A stretch of 62,325 nucleotides of DNA, the filler included. It is 6 parts of 6 records of this genome, joined end to end, with 100 filler letters (N's around TTAATTAATTAA, not from the genome) between each part and the next. Parts side by side here need not be neighbours in the genome. Positions count along the whole stretch, not along the records: positions 1 to 14,702 come from SRR31147125_5666; 5 more parts are not named here. One strand, 5' to 3'. The notes below the pieces were generated by a model. It was not told the DNA's origin. It saw nothing but the letters and a program-made list of their open reading frames with translations, and made no database searches. Of the stretch, positions 1 to 55,816 are shown one piece after another. The position numbers were made by a program, and so were the translations under genes. Each line of letters opens with the position of its first letter. Positions within the stretch are counted from its first letter, which is position 1.

Positions 1-30
1 GCCTGTAACATGAAGTTACAGGCTTTTCTT
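1..30. terminator. Intrinsic terminator hairpin (probably bidirectional) next to the tRNA 3' fragment
   Basis: GCCTGTAAC(1-9)/GTTACAGGC(15-23) perfect 9-bp stem followed by TTTTCTT. Confidence 0.7.
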
Positions 31-31
31 G

Positions 32-54
32 TGGCAGGGGCAGAAGGACTTGAA
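32..54 (-). mobile_element. Displaced tRNA 3'-end fragment (Trp-like), putative att site of an integrative element
   Basis: Minus strand reads TTCAAGTCCTTCTGCCCCTGCCA (T-loop, T-stem 3' side, acceptor 3' side, CCA). The tRNA-like sequence does not continue upstream of TTCAA. Confidence 0.6.
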
Positions 55-321
55 GTTGATGAGCGTCATTCTAGCGTATAAAATCAAGTGAAATACGGGG
101 CTATTGCTTAACGGCGTATAATTATGCTTAATCAAACAAAAACCTCTAGGGGGTAAATTATGGGGTGGCAAGTCGTATCGAAAGGCAGACATATAAAGGA
201 ATTTTCTATCTGACAGAACATCTTTTCTATAATAGATATCCGCATTCATGTGCTAAAATGTAGTAAAGGTTATAGACTGGCAAACCAAATTAATCTTATA
301 ACTATTTAGGAGGATAATATT

Positions 322-1425
322 TTGGCAATTCCTAAATTAGACACAAAAGAGCTTTCTGTTGTTGGCGAAGTCCCCAACCCATTTGGCGGACTAGGTTCTC
401 CAATCTTTGGTTTCCCAACTACAGGTAAAGAAGCGGGTAGGTTGCTCTACAAGAGAACTCCGTGGTGGCAGTTTGCCCCAGGCGTAGGTGTTGAATCAAC
501 TATGTTTAACCCGGGATGTGTTCCCGACAACATCGCCCGTGCGTTTGTTTTTGACGGTTCTTTCGTCCCCGGCGTGTCCAATCAGGCCGGTGGCAAGGAC
601 ATGTTCGGTATTGACTGGGAGTTTGTCCCGTCAGCCGGCGGCTCTATGGTGCGGCCAGGCAAGCCCTTTGTCGAGGACGCCAACGAGATCAAAGATAAGG
701 TCCAATGGCCCGATATCGACCGTTGGGATTGGGCCGGCTGTAGGAACATCAGCGAGCAGTATTTAAGCTTGCCGAACTTTTACTACACCATGTTTTTTAC
801 CGGCTGGTATGAAAGGCTCATCTCCTTCATGGATTTTGAAGGTGCCATTATGGCATTGATCGACGAGGACCAAAAGGATGCTGTAAAGGATTTCTTTGAT
901 AAGCTTTCCGACTTATATATTCGTATCTTAGAAAAATACATCACCTATTTCCCAGAGGTTGAATGCTACAGTATCCATGATGACTGGGGTTCTCAAAAGG
1001 ATACATTCTTCTCCCCTGCATGTGTGGAAGAGATGATCGTCCCCTATATGAAGCGGGTCACCGACTTCCTCCATTCTAAGGGTAAATACTGCGACCTTCA
1101 CAGCTGTGGTCAGTTGATGAAACAGGTTCCTAATATGATTGCTGCAGGCTGGGACTCCTGGATGCCGCAGCCCCTGAACGATACACACAAGATTTACGAG
1201 CTATACGGCGATAAGCTGCTCATTGGTGTAATGCCTGAGATTTATGACGTGGCATCTTCTTCTGAAAAAGACCAAAGAGCGTTTGCCAAAGCTTATGCCG
1301 ACAAATTCTGCAATCCTCAAAAACCCTCCATGCTTAACATGTATGCCGGTTATGGCGTTGATATTATCACACCCGCGTATAGGGAAGAGCTATATAAGCA
1401 ATCACGAATTAATTACAGCAAATAA
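322..1425 (+). CDS. Uroporphyrinogen decarboxylase-family protein (MtaA/CmuA-like, O-demethylase methyltransferase I type)
   Basis: AGGAGG RBS then TTG; motifs GKDMFGIDW, ERLISFMDFE, HDDWGSQ, LHSCG. Confidence 0.85.
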   Translation: MAIPKLDTKELSVVGEVPNPFGGLGSPIFGFPTTGKEAGRLLYKRTPWWQFAPGVGVESTMFNPGCVPDNIARAFVFDGSFVPGVSNQAGGKDMFGIDWEFVPSAGGSMVRPGKPFVEDANEIKDKVQWPDIDRWDWAGCRNISEQYLSLPNFYYTMFFTGWYERLISFMDFEGAIMALIDEDQKDAVKDFFDKLSDLYIRILEKYITYFPEVECYSIHDDWGSQKDTFFSPACVEEMIVPYMKRVTDFLHSKGKYCDLHSCGQLMKQVPNMIAAGWDSWMPQPLNDTHKIYELYGDKLLIGVMPEIYDVASSSEKDQRAFAKAYADKFCNPQKPSMLNMYAGYGVDIITPAYREELYKQSRINYSK

Positions 1426-1542
1426 AAAGGAACATATATTCAATCCGATTAAAAATGCTGGTGTACATTATGATTTAGTACCGCAATTCACTTTGCATTA
1501 AAACCGACTCAATCAATAAGCTGCATCAGCGGATTATCAGAA

Positions 1543-1574
1543 GCCTCCCAGCGTATGAACTTACGATGGGAGGC
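1543..1574. terminator. Hairpin between convergent genes
   Basis: GCCTCCCA...TGGGAGGC inverted repeat. Confidence 0.6.
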
Positions 1575-1683
1575 GTTTATGTATGCAATTTGAGATGGCT
1601 GACAGTGCGGTAATACCGCCAATAAAGTTAGGTGCATTGGGTCTGATTAAACGTATTTTACAGTACCCAAGTGAAACAAGGAT

Positions 1684-2690
1684 TCATTGAAAGTTTTCTT
1701 TGTTAAATCTGGCAATCTCGTCGTTAATGAACTTGTCAGCTTGTGGGAATATTGACCCCGGGCTTCCATACGTCATGCTTGGGATGAAGTGCCCGTTTGG
1801 CGTATATTCATTTAATGCGCGGCGTGTTTCAGCGCGAATCTCTTCCTCTGTTGAATCCTCACGATCAACTATCGCAGCTTCAAGCCCTCCCATAAGTGTC
1901 ATTCTCCCATCAAGCTGCTTCTGAATAGCAACTATATCGTTTTGTGGGAGTGCTCCCTGCCATACGTCGATATGCAAGTCCACCATATCTTCAACGATTT
2001 GTTCGAGGAACGAGTCGGAATGATGGATAATAGTGATCTCCTGATCGTGGAGATATCCATATATTTTATTGTATTGCGGCTTAATGAATTCACGCCATAA
2101 TTCCGGCGAGATAAACATGTTGGTTTTACTGCCCCAATCGTCATGCGATAGCATAACGTCGGGTTTCATATGCTCAACGATCATTTGCATGTATTTTAAG
2201 CGAAAGTCGCCTATCGCATTGCAAAGATCCATCATCGCCTCAGGCTCAGTCATTAGATTGATAAAAGTATCTTCAAATCCCATCAGAAAATGCAGTCTTT
2301 CAAAAACTCCAGTTGGTGCAAAGGCCATAACGAGATTTTCATTGCGGTTAACAGTTTCTACCCGTTCCATAAACGGTTTCCAAAGCTCAGACTCCGCGCA
2401 ATGGGTGTCGATATCCGGAATTGTAACGGCGTTTTGCCATTGGGTAACGTCCTTAACAACCTTAATCTCATCTGTGACATGCGGCATACTACTAACAACA
2501 CCTTTGGGCCACAATATTAAAGTGCCCCATCGATCTTCTAATGGCGCCATCCCTGGATATCTTGTTCCGCGAACGTATGTATTTACGGGGTCGTCCGAAA
2601 ACCAAGCCAATCCTCCGAACTGACTTACAATTCTGTCCGGTTTTCCATTTTTCTTAAGTGTCTCTAAAAATTCTGCTTTTTCGTAAGCAT
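1684..2690 (-). CDS. URO-D/MtaA-family methyltransferase; true start at 2690 with a 1-nt deletion in a T run near 2666-2671
   Basis: DRWG, FERLHFLMGFED, HDDWGSK and HHSD motifs; GAGGAG RBS + ATG 2690 gives MLTKKQNF/LETLKKNGKPDRIVSQ, the family-typical N-terminus, if one T is restored. Confidence 0.85.
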
Positions 2691-2713
2691 TCTGCTCTCC
2701 TCAACTGATCATT

Positions 2714-5131
2714 CTATATTGAAAGTTCTGTGCGCTTAATCAAATCTTCCTGGCTGCCTTGCGAAAGCTCAACAAAGTAAGCTGAGAATCCAGCAACACG
2801 CACAACAAGATTCTCATTCTCTTTTGGTGCTTTTTGAGCTTCACGGAGCATTTCACTGCTTACAACATTAATTTGCATCTCTATTCCGCCCATCTCAAAA
2901 TACGCTTGTATCAACGCTTTGAGCTTGAGTCTGCTCTCATCGGTACTCAGAGCAGTCGGGTGAAACTTCATATTCAGGAGCGTTCCATTCGGATATTTGC
3001 TCTGGTCCAGCCGTGAGATTGACGCCAATATGGCCGTCGGGCCGTTTGTATCCATTTGCTGCACAGGCGAAATGCCGTCAGCCAAAGGCTCTCCAAGCAT
3101 GCGCCCATCCGGCGTAGCCGCCGTCGACAAACCATATAGCACATTAAACGCAACCGGAAAAAGCCCTGCGCTAAACAGCCCCCGGGGGCCAGACGCAGCG
3201 TTTACAAACTCGGCAAACGTATCGCCTACCCAAGTCAGATATTTGTCGTTATAGTCATTCCCATTGCCGTACCGGGGTACCTCGTTGAGTATATACCGCC
3301 GGAGCTCTTCCTTCCCTTCCCAGTTGGACATGAGCGCATCATACAGTTCTTTAGCGGTACAGATTTTCTTGTCGTACACAAGATACTTGGTCACAGCCAG
3401 GCAATCGACTAAATTGCCGATGGCAATCCCAGGAAATCCTGTTGAATTATACTTCGCGCCGCCGTCCATAACATCTTTTCCGGATTCCATGCAGCCATCC
3501 ATAACCGCGGATACCAGCGGCAGCGGGAGCTCTCTCGCTGTTATGTATTCCTGAATATTCGTCATACTGACCTGCCAGTCAACGAAATATTTCATCTGCT
3601 TGCGAACGGCCTCGAGCACCTGGTCAAAGGACTCCATCTCATAAAGATATCCCGTAGCCAAACCAGTTTGCCTCGGAGCGGACCCGTCCGGATTCGGCAA
3701 CGGGTTGTACCCGTTATTGATTGCCTGAAGGAAACAGTTTGCCATGTTCCAGTATCCTTCCCAACCGGAGGCTCCGCACATGGACCAGTGATCGCCGCAA
3801 CCGGCAGGCTCCACACAACCGATCAGGCAGTAATTGCGGGCACTCTCAAGCGACAAGCCCCTTCCCTGAAGACCCGGTATAATCATTTCATCATATTCAA
3901 ATGTCGGTACACCACCGGCAATCATCGTCGTCGCAATTGCTGCCTCCCATAATTCATCGGGTGTGTCCTGATGAATCCTCAATGCCTGCGGGGGATCATG
4001 CAGCACAAGTCTTGCCGCTGACTGGAGCATCATATACGTTACGGCATTCGTTGCGTCGTTCCCGTTTCTATCGGTACCGCCAAGCGTCATCAGCATACCG
4101 CTTGTATATCCTGATACACCGCGTGCGGAGGTCGATGGCCCCATTTTATTCATCTCGGCTACCTTCAGGTAAAACAAATCGAGGATTTCCTGCCCCTCCT
4201 CCGGCGTCAATTCATCCATGGCTATATCCGCCTGATAAAATTCACCCAGATATTGATCAACGCGCCCAAAGCTTATCCCATGTTGTTGACCATCCAGACA
4301 CATACCGATATGATAAAGATACAGGCATTGAACAGCATCGCGAAAATTTCGGCAGGGATTCTCCATAATCCAGTTTAGACTGTCAGCCATTCTCTCTAAC
4401 TCTTTTTTCCGTACTGCATCCTTTTCCTGTTGTGCCAAAGCAAGGCAACCGGCAGCATAACGCTTTGACAGGGTAATCATGGCCTGACTTACAAGAGCTA
4501 CAGCTCGGTAAAATGTATACTTTTCCGCCCTGTCACCGTAGAGACGTCCTTCCAGGTTTGCCATTTTTGTGAGTGCTTCATCCCGGATGGAACCAAATCC
4601 CCGGCACATCACCTTTTGATAATTCGAGCAAAAATGGCCAATCGGCATGATGCAGATTTTATCCGTAAAAGCCGTCACGCCGTTCCCGACGCATTTCAAA
4701 TATCCTTCGGGAACATATTCGCTGAGCTTTGCACTGTTATTTTCTTTTTCCCAAAAATCAACAATGCTTAGAACATAATTGATATCCTCTTGATCAATGA
4801 GGTAATTGTCCGTGGACCGGTTAAGCAGCGTTCCGTTATCCCAGTCTCGCCGGAACCATGCGATTCCTCCGAATTCCGGATTCAGTGATGAGCCCCGGTA
4901 TGATGTGGCCTGACTGCCGACAATTATTTCATCATCATTAATATGAATCGGAAGCTTGTTACACAGGTTTTCAAAGTTTTTTGCCCTTTTCAAAATACCT
5001 GTCAGCTGTGTGTTTTCCTGATAAAATTCAGTTACTATCTTTAAGCGTGCAGTACAGAGCTTCGGTATCGTAGAACGGTACCGTTCACGAACTCTAACAA
5101 CGCGTTCGGACATCGGTTTTAGTGCAAACAT
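2714..5131 (-). CDS. Glycyl radical enzyme (PFL superfamily, eliminase-type), substrate unknown
   Basis: Cys loop CLIGCVEP, Gly loop LVVRVAGFSAYF, ATPDGR..GEPLADGISP; GGGAGG RBS before ATG 5131 (805 aa). Confidence 0.92.
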   Translation of the reverse strand: MFALKPMSERVVRVRERYRSTIPKLCTARLKIVTEFYQENTQLTGILKRAKNFENLCNKLPIHINDDEIIVGSQATSYRGSSLNPEFGGIAWFRRDWDNGTLLNRSTDNYLIDQEDINYVLSIVDFWEKENNSAKLSEYVPEGYLKCVGNGVTAFTDKICIMPIGHFCSNYQKVMCRGFGSIRDEALTKMANLEGRLYGDRAEKYTFYRAVALVSQAMITLSKRYAAGCLALAQQEKDAVRKKELERMADSLNWIMENPCRNFRDAVQCLYLYHIGMCLDGQQHGISFGRVDQYLGEFYQADIAMDELTPEEGQEILDLFYLKVAEMNKMGPSTSARGVSGYTSGMLMTLGGTDRNGNDATNAVTYMMLQSAARLVLHDPPQALRIHQDTPDELWEAAIATTMIAGGVPTFEYDEMIIPGLQGRGLSLESARNYCLIGCVEPAGCGDHWSMCGASGWEGYWNMANCFLQAINNGYNPLPNPDGSAPRQTGLATGYLYEMESFDQVLEAVRKQMKYFVDWQVSMTNIQEYITARELPLPLVSAVMDGCMESGKDVMDGGAKYNSTGFPGIAIGNLVDCLAVTKYLVYDKKICTAKELYDALMSNWEGKEELRRYILNEVPRYGNGNDYNDKYLTWVGDTFAEFVNAASGPRGLFSAGLFPVAFNVLYGLSTAATPDGRMLGEPLADGISPVQQMDTNGPTAILASISRLDQSKYPNGTLLNMKFHPTALSTDESRLKLKALIQAYFEMGGIEMQINVVSSEMLREAQKAPKENENLVVRVAGFSAYFVELSQGSQEDLIKRTELSI

Positions 5132-5341
5132 AAAAAACCTCCCATTAGCCTTCTTTGTTATCATTGTAGCGAATGGTAATTTAAATGAGAAATAACAAAT
5201 ACTTTGCACCATATAAACAACTTCAATAAGCTATTTTTATATACTATGCCACTCATACGTATCTTTAAATTTTGACTTGCTTTCCCTGGTGATATTATGT
5301 TAAATAAAATATAACTTTGTTATCAAGAGAGGTGTCGGAAG

Positions 5342-6265
5342 GTGGATAATAACAAACTGGAATACTTTATCTCAGCAGCTCAGTCCCTTAATTTCTCTGA
5401 AGTTGCACGTACACACTATATTTCCCAGCCGGCTGTAAGCCATCAAATTAGTCTGCTTGAGGATGAGTTGGGTGTTCAGCTGTTTACACGTGTCGGACGC
5501 CAACTCCTGCTAACGAGCGAAGGAGAGCTGTTTTTGCCGCATGCTATTCAAATTTTAGAGGACATGCATGAGGCAACGCAGCTTGTACAGCGACAAAAGC
5601 AGGGTAAATCGGGCAAAGTGTCAATCGTCGTTGCAAACACCACCAGTGCGACGTATAAAAAATGTCTGACCGAATTTACAACGCGATACCCGAATATACT
5701 TGTCGACACGACTATCGCGCTGGGCTATGAGCAGACCAACGAAATATCAAAAGGTAACTTTGATATTTGCTTTATTGCAGAATATATGGTCGCTGACAAT
5801 GCCAATCTCGATTATACGATTACTCAGCAGGACAAGATGTGTCTGGCCATGCCAACGTCATTTCCACCCGCAACTGACCTCAACGATATGTCTTATCTTG
5901 AGGAGCATCCTTTTATTGGCATTAATTACGAGAGCTCTCCCCTTCTCAAGGAAGAAATACAAAACATCTGCATTCGAAGAAACTTCTCTCCAAAAACGAT
6001 TCACCAATACAACCGAATGGAAGCAGTTTTGTGGTCTGTCGACGCGGGTGTTGGTATTTCAATCGTACCACTTTCTCTGATTTCCCTTTACCCTACTGAA
6101 AACATCACCTGTATTCCGTTTGAAGGTGAGGACTGTACTGTCAATTGTATTGCAGGTTGGCAGCGCATAACAAAAAACACTGCTGCCCAAAAATTCAAAG
6201 AAGTCGTGCTGGAACTGTATCCAAAAGAATCTTTTATAACAGAAACTGAATCCGAGGATCAATAA
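5342..6265 (+). CDS. LysR-family transcriptional regulator, divergent from the GRE
   Basis: N-terminal HTH LNFSEVARTHYISQPAVSHQISLLEDELGVQLF; about 300 aa. Confidence 0.92.
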   Translation: MDNNKLEYFISAAQSLNFSEVARTHYISQPAVSHQISLLEDELGVQLFTRVGRQLLLTSEGELFLPHAIQILEDMHEATQLVQRQKQGKSGKVSIVVANTTSATYKKCLTEFTTRYPNILVDTTIALGYEQTNEISKGNFDICFIAEYMVADNANLDYTITQQDKMCLAMPTSFPPATDLNDMSYLEEHPFIGINYESSPLLKEEIQNICIRRNFSPKTIHQYNRMEAVLWSVDAGVGISIVPLSLISLYPTENITCIPFEGEDCTVNCIAGWQRITKNTAAQKFKEVVLELYPKESFITETESEDQ

Positions 6266-6397
6266 AAGAACCGCAGCCGGCTCAAAGAAAGTACCAACTG
6301 CGATTTATTTTTATAAGTTTATAGGCATAAAGTCTTTTTGGCGTCTCTTTGCCTATGTTTTCATTGTCTTACAAAATAGATGAAAAGGTACGGAAGC

Positions 6398-7327
6398 ATG
6401 ATTAACGAACTGAAAATCAGATGTTTCCTATGTTTGACTGAAACACTTAATTTCACTGAAACCGGGAAAAAACTATTCATATCGCAGCAGGCTGTCAGCC
6501 GTCATATATCCAACCTCGAAGAGGACATTGGTGTTTTGCTGTTTGAAAGAACGCGTAATTCGGTTGAATTGACAGAAGCCGGCATCCGTTTCTATCAATT
6601 CTTCAAAGAAACCGGTTCTCGTTTTCAGTCTCTTGTAACAGAAATGCAAAATGGGTATTCCCTGCATACTAAAAACATAAGGATCGGTTACCAAAACTGG
6701 CTTGATTTTGGCCCGGCCCTTGGAAGTGCCATGGCTGTCCTGCGTGAAAACACTCCGGATCTACACCTCCTGGGTGAGCGCCATTCGCCATTAGCTTTGA
6801 TCTCACTTCTGGAAAGCATATCTTTGGACATGATCCTCATCCATGAGCGTTTCTTACTTGAACGGGACAGCCTGCGCAAACTTCTTTTAATCAAAACACC
6901 GATGCAGGTGGTCGTTGCGCGTAATGATCCAATCTGCAACAAATTCACAGATGATTATCATGTGTTTGAAGTACGCCCCTTACTGATCGACGCATTAGAA
7001 GGTGAAAATAAATCCGCTACTATAAAACGGGCTCAAGCCGAACTGGAGCCTTATCACTTCAGCCCTGAAGAAATTATCGTTTTACCAAATAGGGACTCAA
7101 TATATACCGAGGCTGAACTCGGCCGTGGTGTTTTCCTCAGCAGTTCAATGGCACAAGCTGCTCAAAGCAGCACATTGGCACGCTTTGACACAGATATATT
7201 TGAAGGCCTTTTCTGTGTGTGGCGTGCCAGCGGCTACAATTATTATATTAAGCAATACGCTAAACAGCTCAAAGTGGAATACGGAAAATTATCTGAGCAG
7301 TTTCTTAAAACCCGAAGTTGGAGCTAA
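6398..7327 (+). CDS. LysR-family transcriptional regulator
   Basis: LNFTETGKKLFISQQAVSRHISNLEEDIGVLLFER. Confidence 0.9.
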   Translation: MINELKIRCFLCLTETLNFTETGKKLFISQQAVSRHISNLEEDIGVLLFERTRNSVELTEAGIRFYQFFKETGSRFQSLVTEMQNGYSLHTKNIRIGYQNWLDFGPALGSAMAVLRENTPDLHLLGERHSPLALISLLESISLDMILIHERFLLERDSLRKLLLIKTPMQVVVARNDPICNKFTDDYHVFEVRPLLIDALEGENKSATIKRAQAELEPYHFSPEEIIVLPNRDSIYTEAELGRGVFLSSSMAQAAQSSTLARFDTDIFEGLFCVWRASGYNYYIKQYAKQLKVEYGKLSEQFLKTRSWS

Positions 7328-7328
7328 T

Positions 7329-7529
7329 CTACCAGAGCTTCAATTGATCCTGAGCATATTTACTCAGATCTCCTACGGCTTTTTCCACTGAATTGCAGAC
7401 GGCTTCGATCAGCCGTTTTGTCTCTTCATCCGCCTTGGATTCACCCAGAAGATTCGTCAGTTCCTTTTTCAGCTGAATTGGGATACGGTCATATTCGCTG
7501 CGCAGGAACGAGTATGTATATTGTGCCAT
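7329..7529 (-). CDS. Small helical protein, third gene of the molybdoenzyme operon
   Basis: AGGAG RBS, 15 nt downstream of the Fe-S subunit, 66 aa, hydrophilic. Confidence 0.65.
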   Translation of the reverse strand: MAQYTYSFLRSEYDRIPIQLKKELTNLLGESKADEETKRLIEAVCNSVEKAVGDLSKYAQDQLKLW

Positions 7530-7544
7530 ATGGTCGTCTCCTTT

Positions 7545-7886
7545 CTATTTGGGGGAATAAAGGATGCCGCGCGGCATATCCGGCAGCTTTTTCGCCAGCT
7601 CCTCTAAATCGCCATAGTGAATACTCGCCGTGCCGCAATGCCGGACGCAGGCCGGCACCGTATCCTCGCCGGATGCCATGCGGGACGCGCACAACGTACA
7701 GTTTTTTGAAAAATATGGAACATAGTCAAACTGGACCTTGTTTGACTCGGCGTCTTCCATGATGATCTCGGTTATCTTGATCCCGCTGATACCAACGGGG
7801 TATTGATTTTCCTGTTTACAGGCGACCTCACAGGCGTGGCAGCCGGTACAGTAATGCATGTCCACAAGAATTCCTTTTTTAGACAT
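7545..7886 (-). CDS. 4Fe-4S subunit of the molybdoenzyme (DmsB-like, short)
   Basis: CTGCHACEVAC, CTLC and PACVRHC motifs; AAGGAG RBS before ATG 7886. Confidence 0.88.
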   Translation of the reverse strand: MSKKGILVDMHYCTGCHACEVACKQENQYPVGISGIKITEIIMEDAESNKVQFDYVPYFSKNCTLCASRMASGEDTVPACVRHCGTASIHYGDLEELAKKLPDMPRGILYSPK

Positions 7887-7903
7887 AACGGTTCGCTCCT
7901 TTC

Positions 7904-10228
7904 CTACTTGCCCCATACGTCGACGGGCGGATTGCAGGGGGTGCCCGTTTCGCTGCCGCCCATTTTGACGAGGCGGACCAATGTCGTCTTATAGCCGTTC
8001 CCGCCGTAGCCGGTCCGGGCCTGAAGGCCGACCGGAATCAGCGTGTTGACACCCACGTCCCACGTACCGAACAGATTCGGGGATCGACCGTCCGTCTCAG
8101 GTAACCACCAGCCATGCAGGCAGGAAATGGTCTTGGGATGGATGCCGGCATTGATCTTAACCTTGCGCCGGATGCGTCCGCGGTCGTTTTCGACCCAGAC
8201 CCACTCGCCCTCCTCGACCTTCAGGTCCCGGGCAACGGACGGATGGACCTCGACATCCGGCCACGGATCATGCTCTCTGAGCCATGGGATATTCCGGTGC
8301 TCGGAATGGAAGAACACAGGGCTGCGCCGTCCCGTTATCATGACGAGCGGATATTTCTTGAAGGTCTCGGGCGTTGCCAGCTCGCTCTCGGCCGGCTCCT
8401 GATAATGCGGCAGCGGATCGACAATTGTGGCGCCTGTGCTGCCCCAGTCAGCATTCTGCGTGGAATACAGCTCAATTTTGCCCGACGGTGTGCGGAAACC
8501 GGGTTTGCCGTCTGCGCGCAGCGCGCCAGTTTTATAGCGGTAATACGGTACCCACGGAATTTTAGATTCGAGCTCACCGGGGTCTTCTGCCCATTTCCAG
8601 CCGCCCTTTTCAACGAGGCTTTCATACGTCTCCCCCGCCGGCTCAAGCCGCCAGTTCATATAATCGGCAAAACCGTTCGGGAAGCGTTTTTTAAAGTCGG
8701 GATTAAACCGCGCCGCCATCTCGCAGGCGATGTCCCAGTCGTTTTTACACTCGCCTACCTGGACGGCTGGCTGGATCACCTGCACCGGCTCAAACCACGA
8801 GCGGAAACCGGTGCGCTCGGCAAAAGTGGAAGCCGGCAGTATGATGTCGGCAACGGCCATCGTCGTCGGATTGTGAAACAAGTCGACCACGACATTAAAG
8901 TCCATGGCCTTGAGGGCTTCGTAGTGAAGCTTCTGGTCGGCCGCGTTGGCGACCGGGTTGGACGTCTGGATCCATGTCGCGCGGATCGGATACGGCTTTT
9001 GCGTCAACATCTGCTGCACGGCAATGTCCGGCTGTATGTAGCAGCGCCATTTGCGCAGCCAGCCGTATTCCTCGCTGCCGATGCGCTTTTGGACGACCTG
9101 CTCAACGAAATCGTCGCCGAACATGTCGGCCAGCTGATAGTTATCAAACGGATACGCCGATACGTGATATCCGTTTCGTGCAATAACCTGTCCGCCCGGC
9201 ACGTCGATATTTCCGGTGATGGCCCAGATATCATTGATCGCCTGCGCTACGTGAACACCATCCGGCGCCTGGTCGATCGGAAGGCCCCACTGGATGGCGC
9301 AGCCGGGTGAATTTGCAGCGTACGCTTTCGTTGCCTCATAGAGAACGTCCTTTGGTACCCACGTGACAGCTTCGACTTTTTCCGGCGTCCATTCCTTAAC
9401 ACGTTCGGACAGCTCTTCAAAGCCAGAACACCAGTTTTCAACAAATTCTTTATCGTACCAGCCGTTTGAGATAATCAGGTTCAGCATGCCCATCGCAACG
9501 GCGCCGTCCGTCCCCGGCCTCAGCTGTATATGATGGTCCGCGCGAGCTGTCAGAAAATTTTGGCGCGGATCGACAACGATCAGCCTGCTGCCGCGCTTCA
9601 TGCAGTCGATGACCCAGTTGCCGTAAAAACCATCCGGGCAGCCCTTTGTCGGGTCCTGCGCCCAGACGATGATGTATTTGGGCACAACATACCGTGGGTC
9701 GTCAAACCGTTTTTCCAGGAACTGAGAACAGTCGGCAATGGCGTTGTCGCCCTGTACGGCAGACATCGCGCCGAGCCGGGGTCCGTAACAGGCCTGACCG
9801 CCCAAACCAAGCTGGGACCAGTTGGCACTGCCGTAGTTATACGCGACAATCGACATGGGGCCGCCGATATCGCGCCCCGTACCCTGAATGAAGATAACAG
9901 CGTTGGCGCCATAATCTCTTTTTATGTCGCTAAATTTTGTTTCGATAGTATCATAGGCTTCCTCCCAGGTAATACGCTCAAAGCGTCCATCGCCTCTCGG
10001 GCCGACGCGCTTGAGCGGGTATAGAATCCGGTCCTTATGATACATAAACTGTGTCATCGCCAGGAGCCTGGAGCAGCCACGCCCCTGATTCCACGGGTGG
10101 CACTCGTCGCCCTCGACTTTTACAACTTTATCGCCCTTGACAAACAACTTTGCGCCGCAGCCGCCGTGACACCCGGGCCCCGGTGACCAGGTCGTCGTTT
10201 TGACGATGCGGTCATAATCTATGCTCAT
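7904..10228 (-). CDS. Bis-MGD molybdo/tungsto-enzyme catalytic subunit (acetylene hydratase / catechol dehydroxylase-like group), no Tat signal
   Basis: N-terminal WSPGPGCHGGCG...GRGC, GQACYGPR, DIILPASTFAER, C-terminal GRRSPVFFHSEHR; AGGAGG RBS before ATG 10228. Confidence 0.88.
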   Translation of the reverse strand: MSIDYDRIVKTTTWSPGPGCHGGCGAKLFVKGDKVVKVEGDECHPWNQGRGCSRLLAMTQFMYHKDRILYPLKRVGPRGDGRFERITWEEAYDTIETKFSDIKRDYGANAVIFIQGTGRDIGGPMSIVAYNYGSANWSQLGLGGQACYGPRLGAMSAVQGDNAIADCSQFLEKRFDDPRYVVPKYIIVWAQDPTKGCPDGFYGNWVIDCMKRGSRLIVVDPRQNFLTARADHHIQLRPGTDGAVAMGMLNLIISNGWYDKEFVENWCSGFEELSERVKEWTPEKVEAVTWVPKDVLYEATKAYAANSPGCAIQWGLPIDQAPDGVHVAQAINDIWAITGNIDVPGGQVIARNGYHVSAYPFDNYQLADMFGDDFVEQVVQKRIGSEEYGWLRKWRCYIQPDIAVQQMLTQKPYPIRATWIQTSNPVANAADQKLHYEALKAMDFNVVVDLFHNPTTMAVADIILPASTFAERTGFRSWFEPVQVIQPAVQVGECKNDWDIACEMAARFNPDFKKRFPNGFADYMNWRLEPAGETYESLVEKGGWKWAEDPGELESKIPWVPYYRYKTGALRADGKPGFRTPSGKIELYSTQNADWGSTGATIVDPLPHYQEPAESELATPETFKKYPLVMITGRRSPVFFHSEHRNIPWLREHDPWPDVEVHPSVARDLKVEEGEWVWVENDRGRIRRKVKINAGIHPKTISCLHGWWLPETDGRSPNLFGTWDVGVNTLIPVGLQARTGYGGNGYKTTLVRLVKMGGSETGTPCNPPVDVWGK

Positions 10229-10350
10229 CGGAAAAACCTCCTTTTTATTGACAGCCATCATCCTAACATTTCCGAGAATCCTTGTGAAACAACAAGAATT
10301 ATCTCTGACAACCAAAAAGTTGTAAGCGATTGTTTGAAATTTAACAGGTC

Positions 10351-10375
10351 TAACTTTTGAGCGGCTCAAAGGTTA
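10351..10375. promoter_or_regulatory. Putative MerR-family operator upstream of the molybdoenzyme operon
   Basis: Near-perfect dyad TAACTTTTGAGCGGCTCAAAGGTTA. Confidence 0.65.
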
Positions 10376-10591
10376 AGTTCTTTGTTATTGTCTAGGGATC
10401 TGAGACACTTTTGTGCGGTTAAGCAGTATCTATATTCATTTTTGTATATATTGCTTAAAGACACCGCTTGATTAACCCCAAAAAACTTTAGGGTAGGTCA
10501 AGAGTTATATTTACTGAATTTCGTACATCTTTCAACGCAAACGTTGGCCATTTCATCACAACTATGATATACTCCAACGGAGGTGACGGAG

Positions 10592-11404
10592 TTGGAAAAG
10601 TATAAAATCGGCATGGTTGCAAGGCTTCTTGACCTGCCCAACGACACCCTGCGTTATTATGAAAGCAGAGGGATCGTAACGCCCCAAAAGGACGAGGATA
10701 CCGGTTATCGTTACTACGATGCATGGGACCTTAATTATCTGCTGGACAGCAAGTGGTATCGCGGCTACGACTTTTCTCTTGTCGACGTCATTAAAATGAT
10801 CAACGAGGATGACCATTCGTCGTTTGTTAACCGCTGTTTCAAGCGGGAGGCTGAGCTGCTCCAGACCATCTATGAACTTAAAAAGAAGCTGGACGCGCTC
10901 GTCTACTTCCAGCAGCGCGTTTCGCAGGTTCACAATAAACTCAACGTGTTTGAAGTTGTTGAACGCCCAGCCATGGTCTATCAAAGGCACAGGATCGAAT
11001 ACGAGTTTATTTCCGATGAGGACACGCTGTCGATCGCAAAAAAGTGGATTAATCTCATGCCCTTCGTCAATCACACCTTCGTGATCCCCGTATACGACGA
11101 AAAAGATCCAAACGCGTTTAGTGAATATTGGTGGGGGTTCTCACTCAGTCCCGATAACGCGATCCAAAATGGTATAGACATCCTGCCGCCGGCTGAATAT
11201 TTCCCGCCCGTTAAAAGCGTTTATACCGTCTTCATGGCCGGCGAGCGCAACACTTTTACCACGTCGTTAAAATTCCATGTCATCAGCAAGATCAAGGACA
11301 TGGGACACAAGGTTGTGGGCCCGCCGGTCGGCAATCTGATCGTTCGTCTTCATGAGGACGGGGTTTTCACGAGATACTTTGAGGTCTGGGTACCCATTGA
11401 ATAA
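10592..11404 (+). CDS. MerR-family regulator with C-terminal effector (GyrI-like) domain
   Basis: YKIGMVARLLDLPNDTLRYYESRGIVTP...GYRYY; GGAGG precedes TTG 10592. Confidence 0.88.
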   Translation: MEKYKIGMVARLLDLPNDTLRYYESRGIVTPQKDEDTGYRYYDAWDLNYLLDSKWYRGYDFSLVDVIKMINEDDHSSFVNRCFKREAELLQTIYELKKKLDALVYFQQRVSQVHNKLNVFEVVERPAMVYQRHRIEYEFISDEDTLSIAKKWINLMPFVNHTFVIPVYDEKDPNAFSEYWWGFSLSPDNAIQNGIDILPPAEYFPPVKSVYTVFMAGERNTFTTSLKFHVISKIKDMGHKVVGPPVGNLIVRLHEDGVFTRYFEVWVPIE

Positions 11405-11418
11405 GCTCAATATTTTAG

Positions 11419-11450
11419 GCAGCTTCGACAAAACGAAGCTGCTTTTTTTT
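11419..11450 (+). terminator. Intrinsic terminator after merR
   Basis: GCAGCTTCG/CGAAGCTGC stem followed by T8. Confidence 0.8.
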
Positions 11451-11454
11451 ATTC

Positions 11455-11485
11455 TTGACATTCGAGTTGCTTAAAGGTTTAGCCT
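11455..11485 (+). promoter_or_regulatory. MerR-type promoter (19-bp spacer) for the cyclase/reductase/permease operon
   Basis: TTGACA-N19-TAGCCT; the spacer dyad resembles the 10351-10375 site. Confidence 0.7.
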
Positions 11486-11513
11486 GAATTTATCTATGAT
11501 GGGGGGTATCTTG

Positions 11514-12146
11514 ATGATCCATGATCTGACGATAACGCTTGATGAAAATACGCTGCCCTTTCCGGACAGTGGTGATCCACCTATGACCTGGAAGCACCTG
11601 GTTGACCACACGGTTTATAAGGCACAGGTCTGCCTGTTCTCCATGGTGACACATCTTGGCACGCACGTGGACGCGCCGCTACATTTTGTGAAAAACGGTA
11701 AAACCACGGCTGAAATTGATCTGGGGCATTACTGCGGACCGGCCGTCTGTCTGGACGTCCCCAATATTCCAGCAGACAGCCTGATTGACATCAGCAGCGT
11801 ATTGAAAGCAAACCGCGAGCTAATCAAGCCCGGGGATATTATTATTCTCCACACCGGCTGGGAGGATAAGGTGGGCACACAGGCGTACTTCGATTTCCCT
11901 GATTTCGATCCGGGCATCGGTGATTTGCTGGAAAGCTACGGCGCACATGGGATCGGATTTGACCTGCCGTCCATTGACAGAAACGGTGCCGCGCATTGCG
12001 CCGTGCTCAGCCGTGATATGAGCATTATTGAGTCGCTTATCAACTTAAAACCCCTGATTGGCAAAAGATTTTATTTCAGCGCCGTTCCGCTGAAATTCAG
12101 CGACGGCGACGGTAGTCCCGTGCGGGCCTACGCTGCTCTTTCGTAA
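11514..12146 (+). CDS. Cyclase-family metal hydrolase (kynurenine formamidase-like)
   Basis: HLGTHVDAPLH motif, IIESL and GDGSPVRA. Confidence 0.9.
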   Translation: MIHDLTITLDENTLPFPDSGDPPMTWKHLVDHTVYKAQVCLFSMVTHLGTHVDAPLHFVKNGKTTAEIDLGHYCGPAVCLDVPNIPADSLIDISSVLKANRELIKPGDIIILHTGWEDKVGTQAYFDFPDFDPGIGDLLESYGAHGIGFDLPSIDRNGAAHCAVLSRDMSIIESLINLKPLIGKRFYFSAVPLKFSDGDGSPVRAYAALS

Positions 12147-12216
12147 GCCGGATTGACCGTATTGTGTAGACGTTCGTTACCTGTAACCAGGAAGACATTA
12201 TAAAGAGGAGAAAACA

Positions 12217-14145
12217 ATGAAATATCAAAAAATGTTCACCCCGATGAAAATAGGAACCTGTGAGATCCCCAATCGCCTGGTGGTCCCGGCCATGGTCGTT
12301 AACATGAATCCGGATAAGCTTGCCACCGAGCGTTTTATCAAATACCATGAAGAAAAGGCTAAGGGCGGCTGGGGCCTCATCATCACGGAGGATTACGTTG
12401 TTAACGAGCATGCCGGCGGCTATCCATACATTGGCGGACTTTTTGACGCGGCACAAATCCCCAGCCATCGCAAGCTGACCGACACCATACATCAATATGA
12501 CACAAAAATATTCTGCCAGATCTATCACGCGGGCCGGCAAGCCAATCACGAGGTCAACGGCGGCGTACAGCCCGTGTCCTGTTCGCCGATACCCTGCCCA
12601 TGGAACAAAGAAATCCCCCGCGAACTGACGGTTGAAGAAATTCAGGAGATCGTCAAGCAATTCGGCATAACAGCAGCTAACGTTGTAAAGGCAGGCTTTG
12701 ATGGCGTCGAGGTCCATGCCGCGCACGGATACCTGATCCATCAGTTTTTATCTGAGGCCTCAAACAAACGTATTGACGAATATGGCGGGACCTATGACAA
12801 CCGGATGCGTTTCCTGCGTGAAATCATGGCCGAGGTACGTAAAGCTGTCGGCCCGGACTTCCCGATTCAGGTTCGTTTCTCAGTTGAAGAAATGTGCGAA
12901 GGCGGACGAACCATGTTCGAGGCCCGTCAAATCATCCGGGATATCGAAGCTTACGGCGCCGATTCAATCAATTTGACATTCAGCATGTACGGCACCCGGT
13001 CTTCCGTAGGCTCTGTCTCCTCCTTCTTCCAGAGCCACGGCAACTTTGTCCGCTATGCCGAAGAAGCTAAAACGTTAGTGAATATTCCCGTAGTCACAGT
13101 CGGCCGGATTCAGGATCCTCATATGGTTGAAGATATTATAACTTCAGGCAAAGCTGATTTCGTCGCTATGGGTCGCACCTCTCTTGTTGATCCGCATTGG
13201 CCGGAAAAAGTCAAAGCTGGAAATGTTGACGACGTTCGCCAGTGTATTGGTTGTCTACAGGGCTGCACAGCCTCTACATATATGCGCGTACCGGTTCATT
13301 GCCTTGTAAATCCTGAACTGGGCTTTGAGTACGAAACCGATTTCTCCAAAGCACCCACATCCAAGAAGGTATTTATTGCCGGCGGCGGTGTTGCCGGAAT
13401 GGAAGCAGCCAGGGCCGCAGCCATCAAAGGACACGAGGTACATCTTTACGAGGCCTCCGGCCAGCTGGGCGGCCAGTTCCTAGCGGCGTCGTATCCGCCG
13501 TTTAAGGGTGAATTCGCCACGCTGCCGGCCTGGCAGCTGCGTCAAATAAAAAAGCTGGGCGTCAACATCCACCTGAACACGCCCCTGACGAAAGACATCG
13601 TCTCGTCTGAGAAACCGGATAAGGTCATTCTGGCAACGGGAGCTAAGCCAATCATCCCCAATGTCCCCGGCGTTGACCTGCCCAACGTCGTTTTAGCTGA
13701 GGATGTTCTATGCGGCCGCTCCGACACAGGGATGAATGTTCTGGTAGCTGGTGGCGGCATGATCGGCTCGGAGACCGCCGCTCATTTGTGCGTGCAGTGC
13801 AAAGCAAAGGTCACGATTGTAGAAATGCTGCCGGATATCGGCCTCGAGATGGAAGCGGGCATCCGCGACGATCTCAAGGATGTTCTGAATAAATTCTTCG
13901 TCGACATCAAAACAGGCACTAAGCTGGCCGGCGTCACTGCCGAAGGCGCGCTTATCCAAAAAGGCGATACCATAACGCTGTTCCCGTGCGATACGATTGT
14001 GCTTGCTATCGGGACAAAAGCTTACAACCCGCTTGAAGCCGAGTTGAAAGGTCTGTGCGATCTTGTCGTCATCGGAGACGCAGTAAAACCGAGAAAAGCA
14101 GTAACGGCTGTCCGTGAAGGATTCGTGGCGGGCATGAACGCCTGA
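12217..14145 (+). CDS. NADH:flavin oxidoreductase (OYE-like FMN/4Fe-4S/FAD; enoate reductase/BaiCD/FadH class)
   Basis: GFDGVEVHAAHGYL, NKRIDEYGG, CIGCLQGC...C, GGGVAGMEAA. Confidence 0.92.
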   Translation: MKYQKMFTPMKIGTCEIPNRLVVPAMVVNMNPDKLATERFIKYHEEKAKGGWGLIITEDYVVNEHAGGYPYIGGLFDAAQIPSHRKLTDTIHQYDTKIFCQIYHAGRQANHEVNGGVQPVSCSPIPCPWNKEIPRELTVEEIQEIVKQFGITAANVVKAGFDGVEVHAAHGYLIHQFLSEASNKRIDEYGGTYDNRMRFLREIMAEVRKAVGPDFPIQVRFSVEEMCEGGRTMFEARQIIRDIEAYGADSINLTFSMYGTRSSVGSVSSFFQSHGNFVRYAEEAKTLVNIPVVTVGRIQDPHMVEDIITSGKADFVAMGRTSLVDPHWPEKVKAGNVDDVRQCIGCLQGCTASTYMRVPVHCLVNPELGFEYETDFSKAPTSKKVFIAGGGVAGMEAARAAAIKGHEVHLYEASGQLGGQFLAASYPPFKGEFATLPAWQLRQIKKLGVNIHLNTPLTKDIVSSEKPDKVILATGAKPIIPNVPGVDLPNVVLAEDVLCGRSDTGMNVLVAGGGMIGSETAAHLCVQCKAKVTIVEMLPDIGLEMEAGIRDDLKDVLNKFFVDIKTGTKLAGVTAEGALIQKGDTITLFPCDTIVLAIGTKAYNPLEAELKGLCDLVVIGDAVKPRKAVTAVREGFVAGMNA

Positions 14146-14286
14146 TCCCGATTAAGTCAGGCTGAATGGGAGGGGATGTTTCGGACAAACAAGATTGCTT
14201 CTGCAACAAAAGCAATTCAGGCTGCAGGGAGGGATTTGCAGCTAAAATCGAAGTGTATTCTGAAAAAAGAAAATGGAGGGATAGTA

Positions 14287-14702
14287 ATGTCTGATACCAC
14301 TTTGGCAACTAAGAAGACCCGGAATACAGCCTATTACATCAAGACCATCATTGGTTTGGCTATCATGCTTTTCTTTGGCCAGCTCCCCGCACCGGAGCCC
14401 ATGACCCAATTGGGTATGATCGTACTCGGACAGTTTCTCGGTCTTATCTTCCTTTGGACCTTCGTTGATATGGTCTGGCCGACCTTTTTGGCGATTGTGC
14501 TATTTGGCTTTATCGCCCAACAAGTGTACCCGGGTTCTTTCGCAATGGCCGGTGTTTATGAAGCCGGTGCCCAAGCAATGGGCAGCTGGGTCGTCGTTAT
14601 TGTTATCGGACTTCTCCTGCTCAATGAAGTTTTAGAGGAAACAGGAATTATCCGGCGCGTCGCTTTCTGGTTCTTAACTAGGAAAGCGGCGAAAAAAAGC
14701 CC
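14287..14702 (+). CDS. SLC13/DASS-family permease, truncated at contig end
   Basis: Multiple hydrophobic helices, LEETGIIRRVAFWFL; GGAGG RBS before ATG 14287. Confidence 0.7.
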
Positions 14703-14802
14703 NNNNNNNNNNNNNNNNNNNNNNNNNNNNNNNNNNNNNNNNNNNNTTAATTAATTAANNNNNNNNNNNNNNNNNNNNNNNNNNNNNNNNNNNNNNNNNN
14801 NN
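14703..14802. other. Artificial contig linker
   Basis: N44-TTAATTAATTAA-N44, stops in all six frames. Confidence 0.98.
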
Positions 14803-23240: not shown

Positions 23241-23340
23241 NNNNNNNNNNNNNNNNNNNNNNNNNNNNNNNNNNNNNNNNNNNNTTAATTAATTAANNNN
23301 NNNNNNNNNNNNNNNNNNNNNNNNNNNNNNNNNNNNNNNN
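23241..23340. other. Artificial contig linker
   Basis: N44-TTAATTAATTAA-N44. Confidence 0.98.
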
Positions 23341-30994: not shown

Positions 30995-31094
30995 NNNNNN
31001 NNNNNNNNNNNNNNNNNNNNNNNNNNNNNNNNNNNNNNTTAATTAATTAANNNNNNNNNNNNNNNNNNNNNNNNNNNNNNNNNNNNNNNNNNNN
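30995..31094. other. Artificial contig linker
   Basis: N44-TTAATTAATTAA-N44. Confidence 0.98.
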
Positions 31095-46169: not shown

Positions 46170-46269
46170 NNNNNNNNNNNNNNNNNNNNNNNNNNNNNNN
46201 NNNNNNNNNNNNNTTAATTAATTAANNNNNNNNNNNNNNNNNNNNNNNNNNNNNNNNNNNNNNNNNNNN
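46170..46269. other. Artificial contig linker
   Basis: N44-TTAATTAATTAA-N44. Confidence 0.98.
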
Positions 46270-55716: not shown

Positions 55717-55816
55717 NNNNNNNNNNNNNNNNNNNNNNNNNNNNNNNNNNNNNNNNNNNNTTAATTAATTAANNNNNNNNNNNNNNNNNNNNNNNNNNNN
55801 NNNNNNNNNNNNNNNN
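55717..55816. other. Artificial contig linker
   Basis: N44-TTAATTAATTAA-N44. Confidence 0.98.

Follow-up and report, generated by a model that had tools for sequence, protein, structure and literature searches.

An unassigned eliminase-type glycyl radical enzyme beside a putative O-demethylase methyltransferase gene in a Sporobacter/Papillibacter-like bacterium

Introduction

What reaction does a glycyl radical enzyme (GRE) catalyse when its gene is followed by a methyltransferase-family gene and no activase gene adjoins it? We addressed this question for the contig SRR31147125_5666, which forms positions 1 to 14,702 of the window (the whole stretch of 62,325 nucleotides that was analysed, six contigs joined by filler). 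A GRE of 805 amino acids, a radical enzyme of an oxygen-sensitive type, is encoded there on the minus strand at 2714..5131 (start ATG at 5131; assigned by open reading frame (ORF), profile, alignment and tree), and its stop lies 23 nt from the ATG at 2690 of a gene of the URO-D superfamily (1684..2690, minus strand). An initial annotation of this DNA had proposed a new GRE chemistry linked to methyl transfer. With a probability of about one half, we propose that the enzyme catalyses C-O elimination on a bulky neutral alcohol, which probably bears an aryl group, that it forms an aldehyde and is activated in trans, and that O-demethylation is a separate reaction; the substrate is probably a lignin-derived aryl diol or aryl-ether alcohol. 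We infer the reaction, the substrate and the activase partner from the sequence, fold, residue map, clade, gene order and counts given below. Labels beginning with L, G and X denote the loci, genomes and public sequencing runs of this analysis.

Sequence, fold and phylogeny of the GRE

The ORF contained every segment quoted in the initial annotation, namely CIMPIGHF at residue 160, DGQQHGISFGR at 280, GVSGYTSG at 338, GCVEP at 438 and GLFPVAFN at 656, together with RVAGF at 778, giving a Cys loop of the CxE type (C439-V-E441) and a Gly loop with G781. By its Gly loop, Cys loop and barrel fold, the protein belongs to the PFL-like GRE superfamily, whose fold is a ten-stranded barrel. An AlphaFold model built with 132 sequences (pLDDT 93.5) matched glycerol dehydratase (GD) and 1,2-propanediol dehydratase (PD) with a TM score of 0.94, and the same enzymes were the best solved relatives in a PDB search (PD 9RCO, 478 bits; GD 1R8W, 464 bits), at 33-34% identity; identity to solved GREs did not exceed 34%. 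A June 2026 GRE review defines eliminase and isomerase GREs by the CxE motif (PMC13450708), and we found C439-V-E441 in 132/132 homologues. Pyruvate formate-lyase was ruled out, the loop being GCVEP with no Cys-Cys and TIGR01255 scoring 113 bits against a cut-off of 994. None of 12 NCBIfam GRE models reached its cut-off, the equivalogs scoring about half of theirs or less (CutC 463/1050, HypD 486/1100, HpfG 529/1000, HpsG/IslA 451/1000, IAD 331/1100).

We built a FastTree phylogeny of 95 GREs chosen from the analysed loci and proteins, excluding near-duplicates and fragments. It placed the protein in a clade of 78 members (support 1.0, stem 0.5, both from an unrooted tree) that held none of the references GD, PD/GrpM, CutC, two HypD equivalogs, YbiW and PflD; the link to CutC had a support of 0.14. 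AAD, PAD, HpfG, IslA, HplG, HpyG and HpzG lay outside the tree and were compared by PDB search (AAD, IslA, HplG, HpyG, HpzG), by NCBIfam model (HpfG) or by motif only (PAD). About ten clusters at 50% identity scored above the 35-37% background. Because non-synonymous divergence (dN) was 0.08-0.10 with synonymous divergence (dS) at or near saturation, the gene appears to be under strong purifying selection, and it is intact. The low identity to solved GREs, the scores below every cut-off and the clade free of characterised references support the initial annotation in treating the protein as an eliminase-type GRE of no assigned family, and the alignment described next bears out its view that the active site is distinct.

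Other GRE types were seen in the same loci. A sister subclade (36-40% identity) has a GCQE Cys loop and no second histidine (L074:5474-10562, L087, L084:5188-7629, L021:5531-7978); its members often stand in tandem, often upstream of an eliminase-type GRE, and likely have a different chemistry. GREs outside the clade with a Cys loop that carries no Glu (GCLGY, GCVY) occurred at L073:5107-7710, L077:5232-7679, L085, L086 and L092, and are conserved between Sporobacter termitidis and G002.

Active site and predicted reaction

Alignment on GD showed that H164/H166, H281/H284, C433/C439, E435/E441, G763/G781 and R782/R800 (GD/GRE) are kept, and that F333 is changed to V339, Y339 to G345, S282 to G285, Y640 to F658 and S642 to V660. 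Ser282, Tyr339, Asp447 and Tyr640 are presumably pocket residues of GD. Across the aligned homologues H166, H284, C439, E441 and G781 were invariant (132/132), G345 was present in 131/132, G285 in 130/132 and E458 in 117/132. Glu435 of GD acts as base and His164 as acid (PMC13450708), Phe333 of GD is named an active-site Phe, and Phe340 of HypD, which aligns with G345 of the GRE, has been shown to be essential (PMC7077986). Since Phe333, Tyr339 and Ser282 become Val, Gly and Gly, the pocket would be larger than that of GD, and neutral. The homologue alignment showed no conserved Arg or Lys for an anion in the active-site segments, and segments 160-168 and 656-663 contained no Arg, in an alignment made up of GREs other than the C-S lyases IslA, IseG and HpsG. 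In these lyases two Arg and one Gln anchor the sulfonate. A subclade of 26 sequences (at least 65% identity) has HWSMC/FPVAFN-type segments and the 52-63% homologues mostly EWACPGG/YPVT-type ones, so the clade probably holds several specificities.

In the mechanism that we propose, the radical on G781 would be generated by an activase whose gene lies elsewhere, likely next to a paralogue that has an identical Gly loop. By analogy with GD, C439 would then abstract hydrogen from the CH2OH carbon, E441 would deprotonate the hydroxyl of that carbon and H166 would assist the departure of a neighbouring water or aryloxide to give an aldehyde. Replacement of F333, Y339 and S282 by Val, Gly and Gly would make room for the bulky group. 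The aldehyde would then pass to adjoining oxidoreductases of the aldo-keto, alcohol, aldehyde and flavin types. An aldehyde or ene oxidoreductase was found within 4 kb in 19/46 homologous loci, and in 4/4 of the activase-less loci that are at least 65% identical. Independently of this reaction, the product of the URO-D-superfamily gene would move methyl groups from aryl methyl ethers to a corrinoid protein. The two genes would share a catabolic island under LysR control, an arrangement confined to this lineage.

A bolder version, which we hold to be a long shot, is that the clade comprises radical aryl-ether lyases and arylglycerol dehydratases that would act on beta-O-4-type lignin fragments, abstracting hydrogen at the gamma-CH2OH and releasing the aryloxide. 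If true, the aryloxide would then be harvested by the neighbouring O-demethylase, and the 12-24 paralogues per genome with few shared activases would form a toolkit for anaerobic cleavage of lignin side chains and ethers.

The URO-D-superfamily partner

As assembled, the partner gene runs from 2690 to a stop after eight codons, with the remainder in another frame (a 1-nt frameshift at codon 8-9, near 2665). An extra base stands behind 2665 in two public runs, X1 (identical DNA, perhaps the source run) and X4 (from a different study, about 93% identity), each represented by one low-depth contig; X2 has no coverage there and a short piece from X3 shows no insertion. With the missing base present in two runs and intact relatives of 335 amino acids at 95% identity, we rejected a pseudogene in favour of an assembly slip; the intact protein would have 335 amino acids.

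The initial annotation had called this gene URO-D/MtaA. The protein does belong to the URO-D superfamily, and MtaA/CmuA enzymes have a His-Cys-Cys zinc site. TIGR01463 (MtaA/CmuA) scored 36.9 bits against a cut-off of 235 and the partner carries H-x-D instead (HHSDS; 118/120 homologues), which speaks against an MtaA-like protein. According to PMC10418091, carboxylates replace the zinc Cys ligands in O-methyltransferases. The partner shares HDDWGS, IIHHSDS, FISP, KIYGY, WQGV, EPEAM and FIPS with OdmB, the O-demethylase methyltransferase I of Acetobacterium dehalogenans, and by a hand count about 67 of 155 core residues (about 43%) are alike, the OdmB sequences being those in a supplement of PMC13222342. 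With this likeness and a carboxylate-substituted zinc site, it is likely an OdmB-like aryl O-demethylase methyltransferase I. One full-length homologue (44.5%) is fused to B12-binding domains, and relatives carry 4-5 corrinoid-protein domains. Unlike in the OdmB system, the annotated genes of the contig included none that we recognised as encoding a corrinoid protein, a methyltransferase II or a reductive activase. We found no solved structure related to the protein by sequence, and a single-sequence fold (pLDDT 39) was not usable. At L185:6001-7740, a Vescimonas protein has an OdmB-like URO-D domain fused to a corrinoid-binding domain.

Host lineage and activation in trans

The closest genomes to the GRE were a Papillibacter metagenome-assembled genome (MAG) at 87%, S. 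termitidis at 87% and one chromosome at 84%, and by sequence the host is Sporobacter/Papillibacter-like. Less similar homologues (51-66%) come from Acidobacteriota, Desulfobacterota, Oscillospiraceae and Lachnospiraceae. S. termitidis is described as growing only on methoxylated aromatics (PMC4585845).

The initial annotation had noted that no activase is adjacent. A six-frame hidden Markov model (HMM) scan gave no match for an activase or a second GRE in the whole window, an absence that applies to the 14.7-kb GRE contig. We read the neighbourhoods of 46 genome loci of GRE homologues by the same kind of scan, 42 of them having enough downstream DNA; the next downstream gene encoded an activase in 31, an aldo-keto reductase in 2, a flavin reductase in 2, an alcohol dehydrogenase in 1, another product or none in 6, and a URO-D protein in 0. 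All three close orthologues (84-87%) have no activase at that place, so its loss is lineage-wide.

Matches for GRE/activase/URO-D in eight genomes were 13/6/32, 19/5/33, 22/6/17, 24/8/7, 17/5/4, 17/6/41, 14/4/19 and 12/9/7, figures that are not copy numbers and are inflated by fragments in some genomes. These genomes (G001-G005, G072, G077, G085) are Sporobacter-like Oscillospiraceae and one Lachnospiraceae MAG, and their radical-enzyme expansion is unusually large. Because 12-24 GREs stand against 4-9 activases per relative genome, activase sharing is likely, and activation in trans, as the initial annotation had inferred for this enzyme, is likely the rule in the lineage. Across four near-complete relatives an activase lay within 5 kb of 23/61 GREs, and in S. 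termitidis, with 13 GRE and 6 activase matches, 6/13 GREs had one within 2 kb and 7/13 had none. The S. termitidis paralogue L069 (55%) has the same RVAGFSAY loop, and an activase lies 1.7 kb away behind its LysR gene; according to PMC13450708, Gly-loop identity tracks cross-activation in the few known cases. The contig of L167:3553-13055 has three GREs grouped around a single activase and a LysR gene, which makes it a straightforward candidate for a shared activase.

Alternative explanations

Several points weigh against a bulky aryl alcohol as substrate. With flavin reductases themselves expanded to 16-37 matches per genome, the argument from gene neighbourhood loses weight; some distant homologues (51-65%) adjoin sugar genes (arabinofuranosidase, FGGY kinase, TRAP); the region of GD Asp447 carries a four-residue insertion and offers no direct equivalent of that residue, which the conserved E458 may or may not replace. 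PflD, which isomerises a sugar phosphate by ring opening, likewise has Gly at 345 and YbiW both histidines; these features therefore do not single out aromatic substrates, and a bulky non-aromatic one may be used. Such an enzyme might act as an isomerase that opens the ring, or as a dehydratase, on a neutral sugar, an anhydro-sugar or a cyclitol with O-methyl groups, since YbiW and PflD cleave ring C-O bonds with CxE and since genes for sugar hydrolases, a kinase and TRAP transporters accompany those distant homologues. We consider this unlikely: identity to YbiW and PflD is a mere 29%, the Arg conserved at 331 in GD, PD, YbiW and PflD is Gly or Trp here, no phosphotransferase system (PTS) or aldolase was found among the scanned neighbours, and the closest cultured host uses methoxylated aromatics only. 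That aromatic-specialist host and the O-demethylase neighbour would suit an aryl-acid decarboxylase, for instance for homovanillate, and AAD works without a small subunit. Far lower scores (AAD 318 bits, HPAD 190 bits, the IAD model at under a third of its cut-off), the invariant dehydratase histidine pair and a Glu at the presumed equivalent of Gln484, which PAD requires and which we take to be its Cys-loop residue, make a decarboxylase very improbable. Decay of an orphan after activase loss would account for the activase that is directly downstream in 31/42 homologues and absent in this lineage. It is hardly credible for a gene under strong purifying selection with invariant catalytic residues and a conserved promoter and LysR box, in a group of relatives where most GREs are orphans.

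The GRE and the methyltransferase could also be a dedicated pair in one pathway, with a product handed on or a methylated GRE substrate, close to what the initial annotation had proposed. The 23-nt gap holds a ribosome-binding site, and the tandem is kept in the relative of about 93% identity (X4), where one contig spans 1656-3994 across both genes; two further assemblies hold near-identical GRE and URO-D proteins on equal-sized contigs, which shows presence rather than adjacency. Of the 46 homologous loci, 9 held a URO-D gene at some position, in 6 of them immediately upstream of an operon with two GREs, and the paralogue L084 has one 152 nt downstream. Pooling four near-complete relatives, with URO-D genes called by Pfam hits, we found a URO-D gene no more than 10 kb from 17/61 GREs, where rotation gave an expectation of 6.45 (2.6-fold, p 0.0008), and no more than 5 kb from 8/61 (p 0.025), in genomes that are related and samples that are not independent. 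Against such a pair, a URO-D gene was directly downstream in 0/42 informative loci, the 84-87% orthologues carrying DUF169, or an aldo-keto reductase and a flavin reductase, at that place; the URO-D proteins near homologous GREs were of other subfamilies (21-34% to the partner); the four closest relatives of the partner (66-68%) had no GRE within about 7 kb; and a single-genome test gave no significant excess. Flavin reductases clustered about as much with GREs (13/61, 2.0-fold, p 0.02) and with URO-D genes (19/99, 1.9-fold, p 0.01); amidohydrolases, as a control, showed no excess near GREs (3/61 against 1.9 expected). Because URO-D was downstream in 0/42 and 2.6-fold is little above 2.0-fold, the tie to methyl transfer is weak: the proximity and the tandem in the 93% relative stand, the linkage of homologues to URO-D genes is largely absent, and common membership of catabolic islands accounts for the pattern with no need of a dedicated pair, which we regard as distinctly unlikely.

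Six loci (L017, L021, L022, L025, L026, L040) have an operon of URO-D, GCQE-type GRE, eliminase-type GRE and activase, followed by an aldehyde:ferredoxin oxidoreductase or alcohol dehydrogenase; this operon is a better candidate than the window for a GRE-methyltransferase pathway. DUF169 genes recur beside GREs of the clade (L001:8581-9399, L018, L021, L039).

Regulatory features and the rest of the window

From gene spacing and order, the GRE and URO-D genes are probably co-transcribed; the gap between them (2691..2713, minus strand) contains the ribosome-binding site GAGGAG. Upstream lies a promoter-like TTCTCA-17-TACAAT (5163..5191, minus strand), with a T-N11-A box just upstream of the -35 element (5211..5230, no strand assigned) that is likely a LysR site, under the T-N11-A consensus that we assume for LysR boxes. 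Both hexamers and the box are conserved in 4/4 aligned orthologous intergenic regions; a promoter and terminator scan alone performed at chance level, and we used only this conserved promoter-like site. The LysR gene (5342..6265, plus strand; profile match and gene order) is divergent from the GRE gene, as initially annotated. The LysR/GRE module recurs in L001 and L006, and in L002 a flavin reductase gene sits between the two. A second URO-D-family gene (322..1425, plus strand; HSC motif, 25% to the first) converges with the operon, and between it and the first URO-D gene lies an inverted repeat of 13 bp (1543..1574, no strand assigned) that is likely a terminator.

Further along the contig, 7545-14145 encodes a molybdopterin oxidoreductase with Fe-S subunit, a MerR regulator, a cyclase/arylformamidase-like gene and a BaiCD-like flavin reductase; the block from MerR to a transporter likewise flanks the GRE in L001. 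The contigs are joined by N runs at 14703-14802, 23241-23340, 30995-31094, 46170-46269 and 55717-55816, with GC fractions from 0.32 to 0.57, and the window likely combines DNA of more than one organism.

Significance and comparison with known systems

The GRE review names six C-O eliminases, every one of them acting on small diols or on hydroxyprolines, and the words lignin, ether, methyltransferase and demethyl do not occur in its text (PMC13450708). Targeted searches of the open-access literature, a scope outside which most subscription journals fall, listed no work on this clade or on a GRE/URO-D pairing. Unassigned GREs are common and one more is unsurprising alone. This clade is large, uncharacterised and multiplied in relatives of a gut anaerobe that uses lignin aromatics. 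Its opened pocket, its expansion in the cultured aromatic specialist S. termitidis DSM 10068 (87% orthologue) and the shortage of activases make it well suited to experimental test, with a candidate role in the radical processing of lignin side chains without oxygen.

Among known systems, CutC, HypD, HpfG and HpsG/IslA share the eliminase-type Cys loop and the fold with the GRE, which differs at the Asp/Thr/Phe positions of CutC and the Asp/Ser/Asp-Phe positions of HypD. YbiW and PflD of E. coli resemble it in CxE, in the C-O cleavage of a bulky substrate that is predicted for it and in Gly 345 (PflD) or both histidines (YbiW), and differ in overall sequence, in the Arg at 331 that is absent here and in a PTS/aldolase context that was not seen. 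The closest are GD of C. butyricum (1R8W) and PD (9RCO, 5I2G), alike in fold, CxE loop, Gly loop and best scores, with the equivalents of His164 and His281 present as H166 and H284. Unlike these enzymes, the GRE has no adjacent activase or microcompartment and belongs to a separate clade, and where they have Phe333, Tyr/Phe339, Ser282, Asp447 and Tyr640 it differs, with V339, G345, G285 and F658 in a pocket predicted to be more open; the initial annotation had already remarked on the divergent active-site segments.

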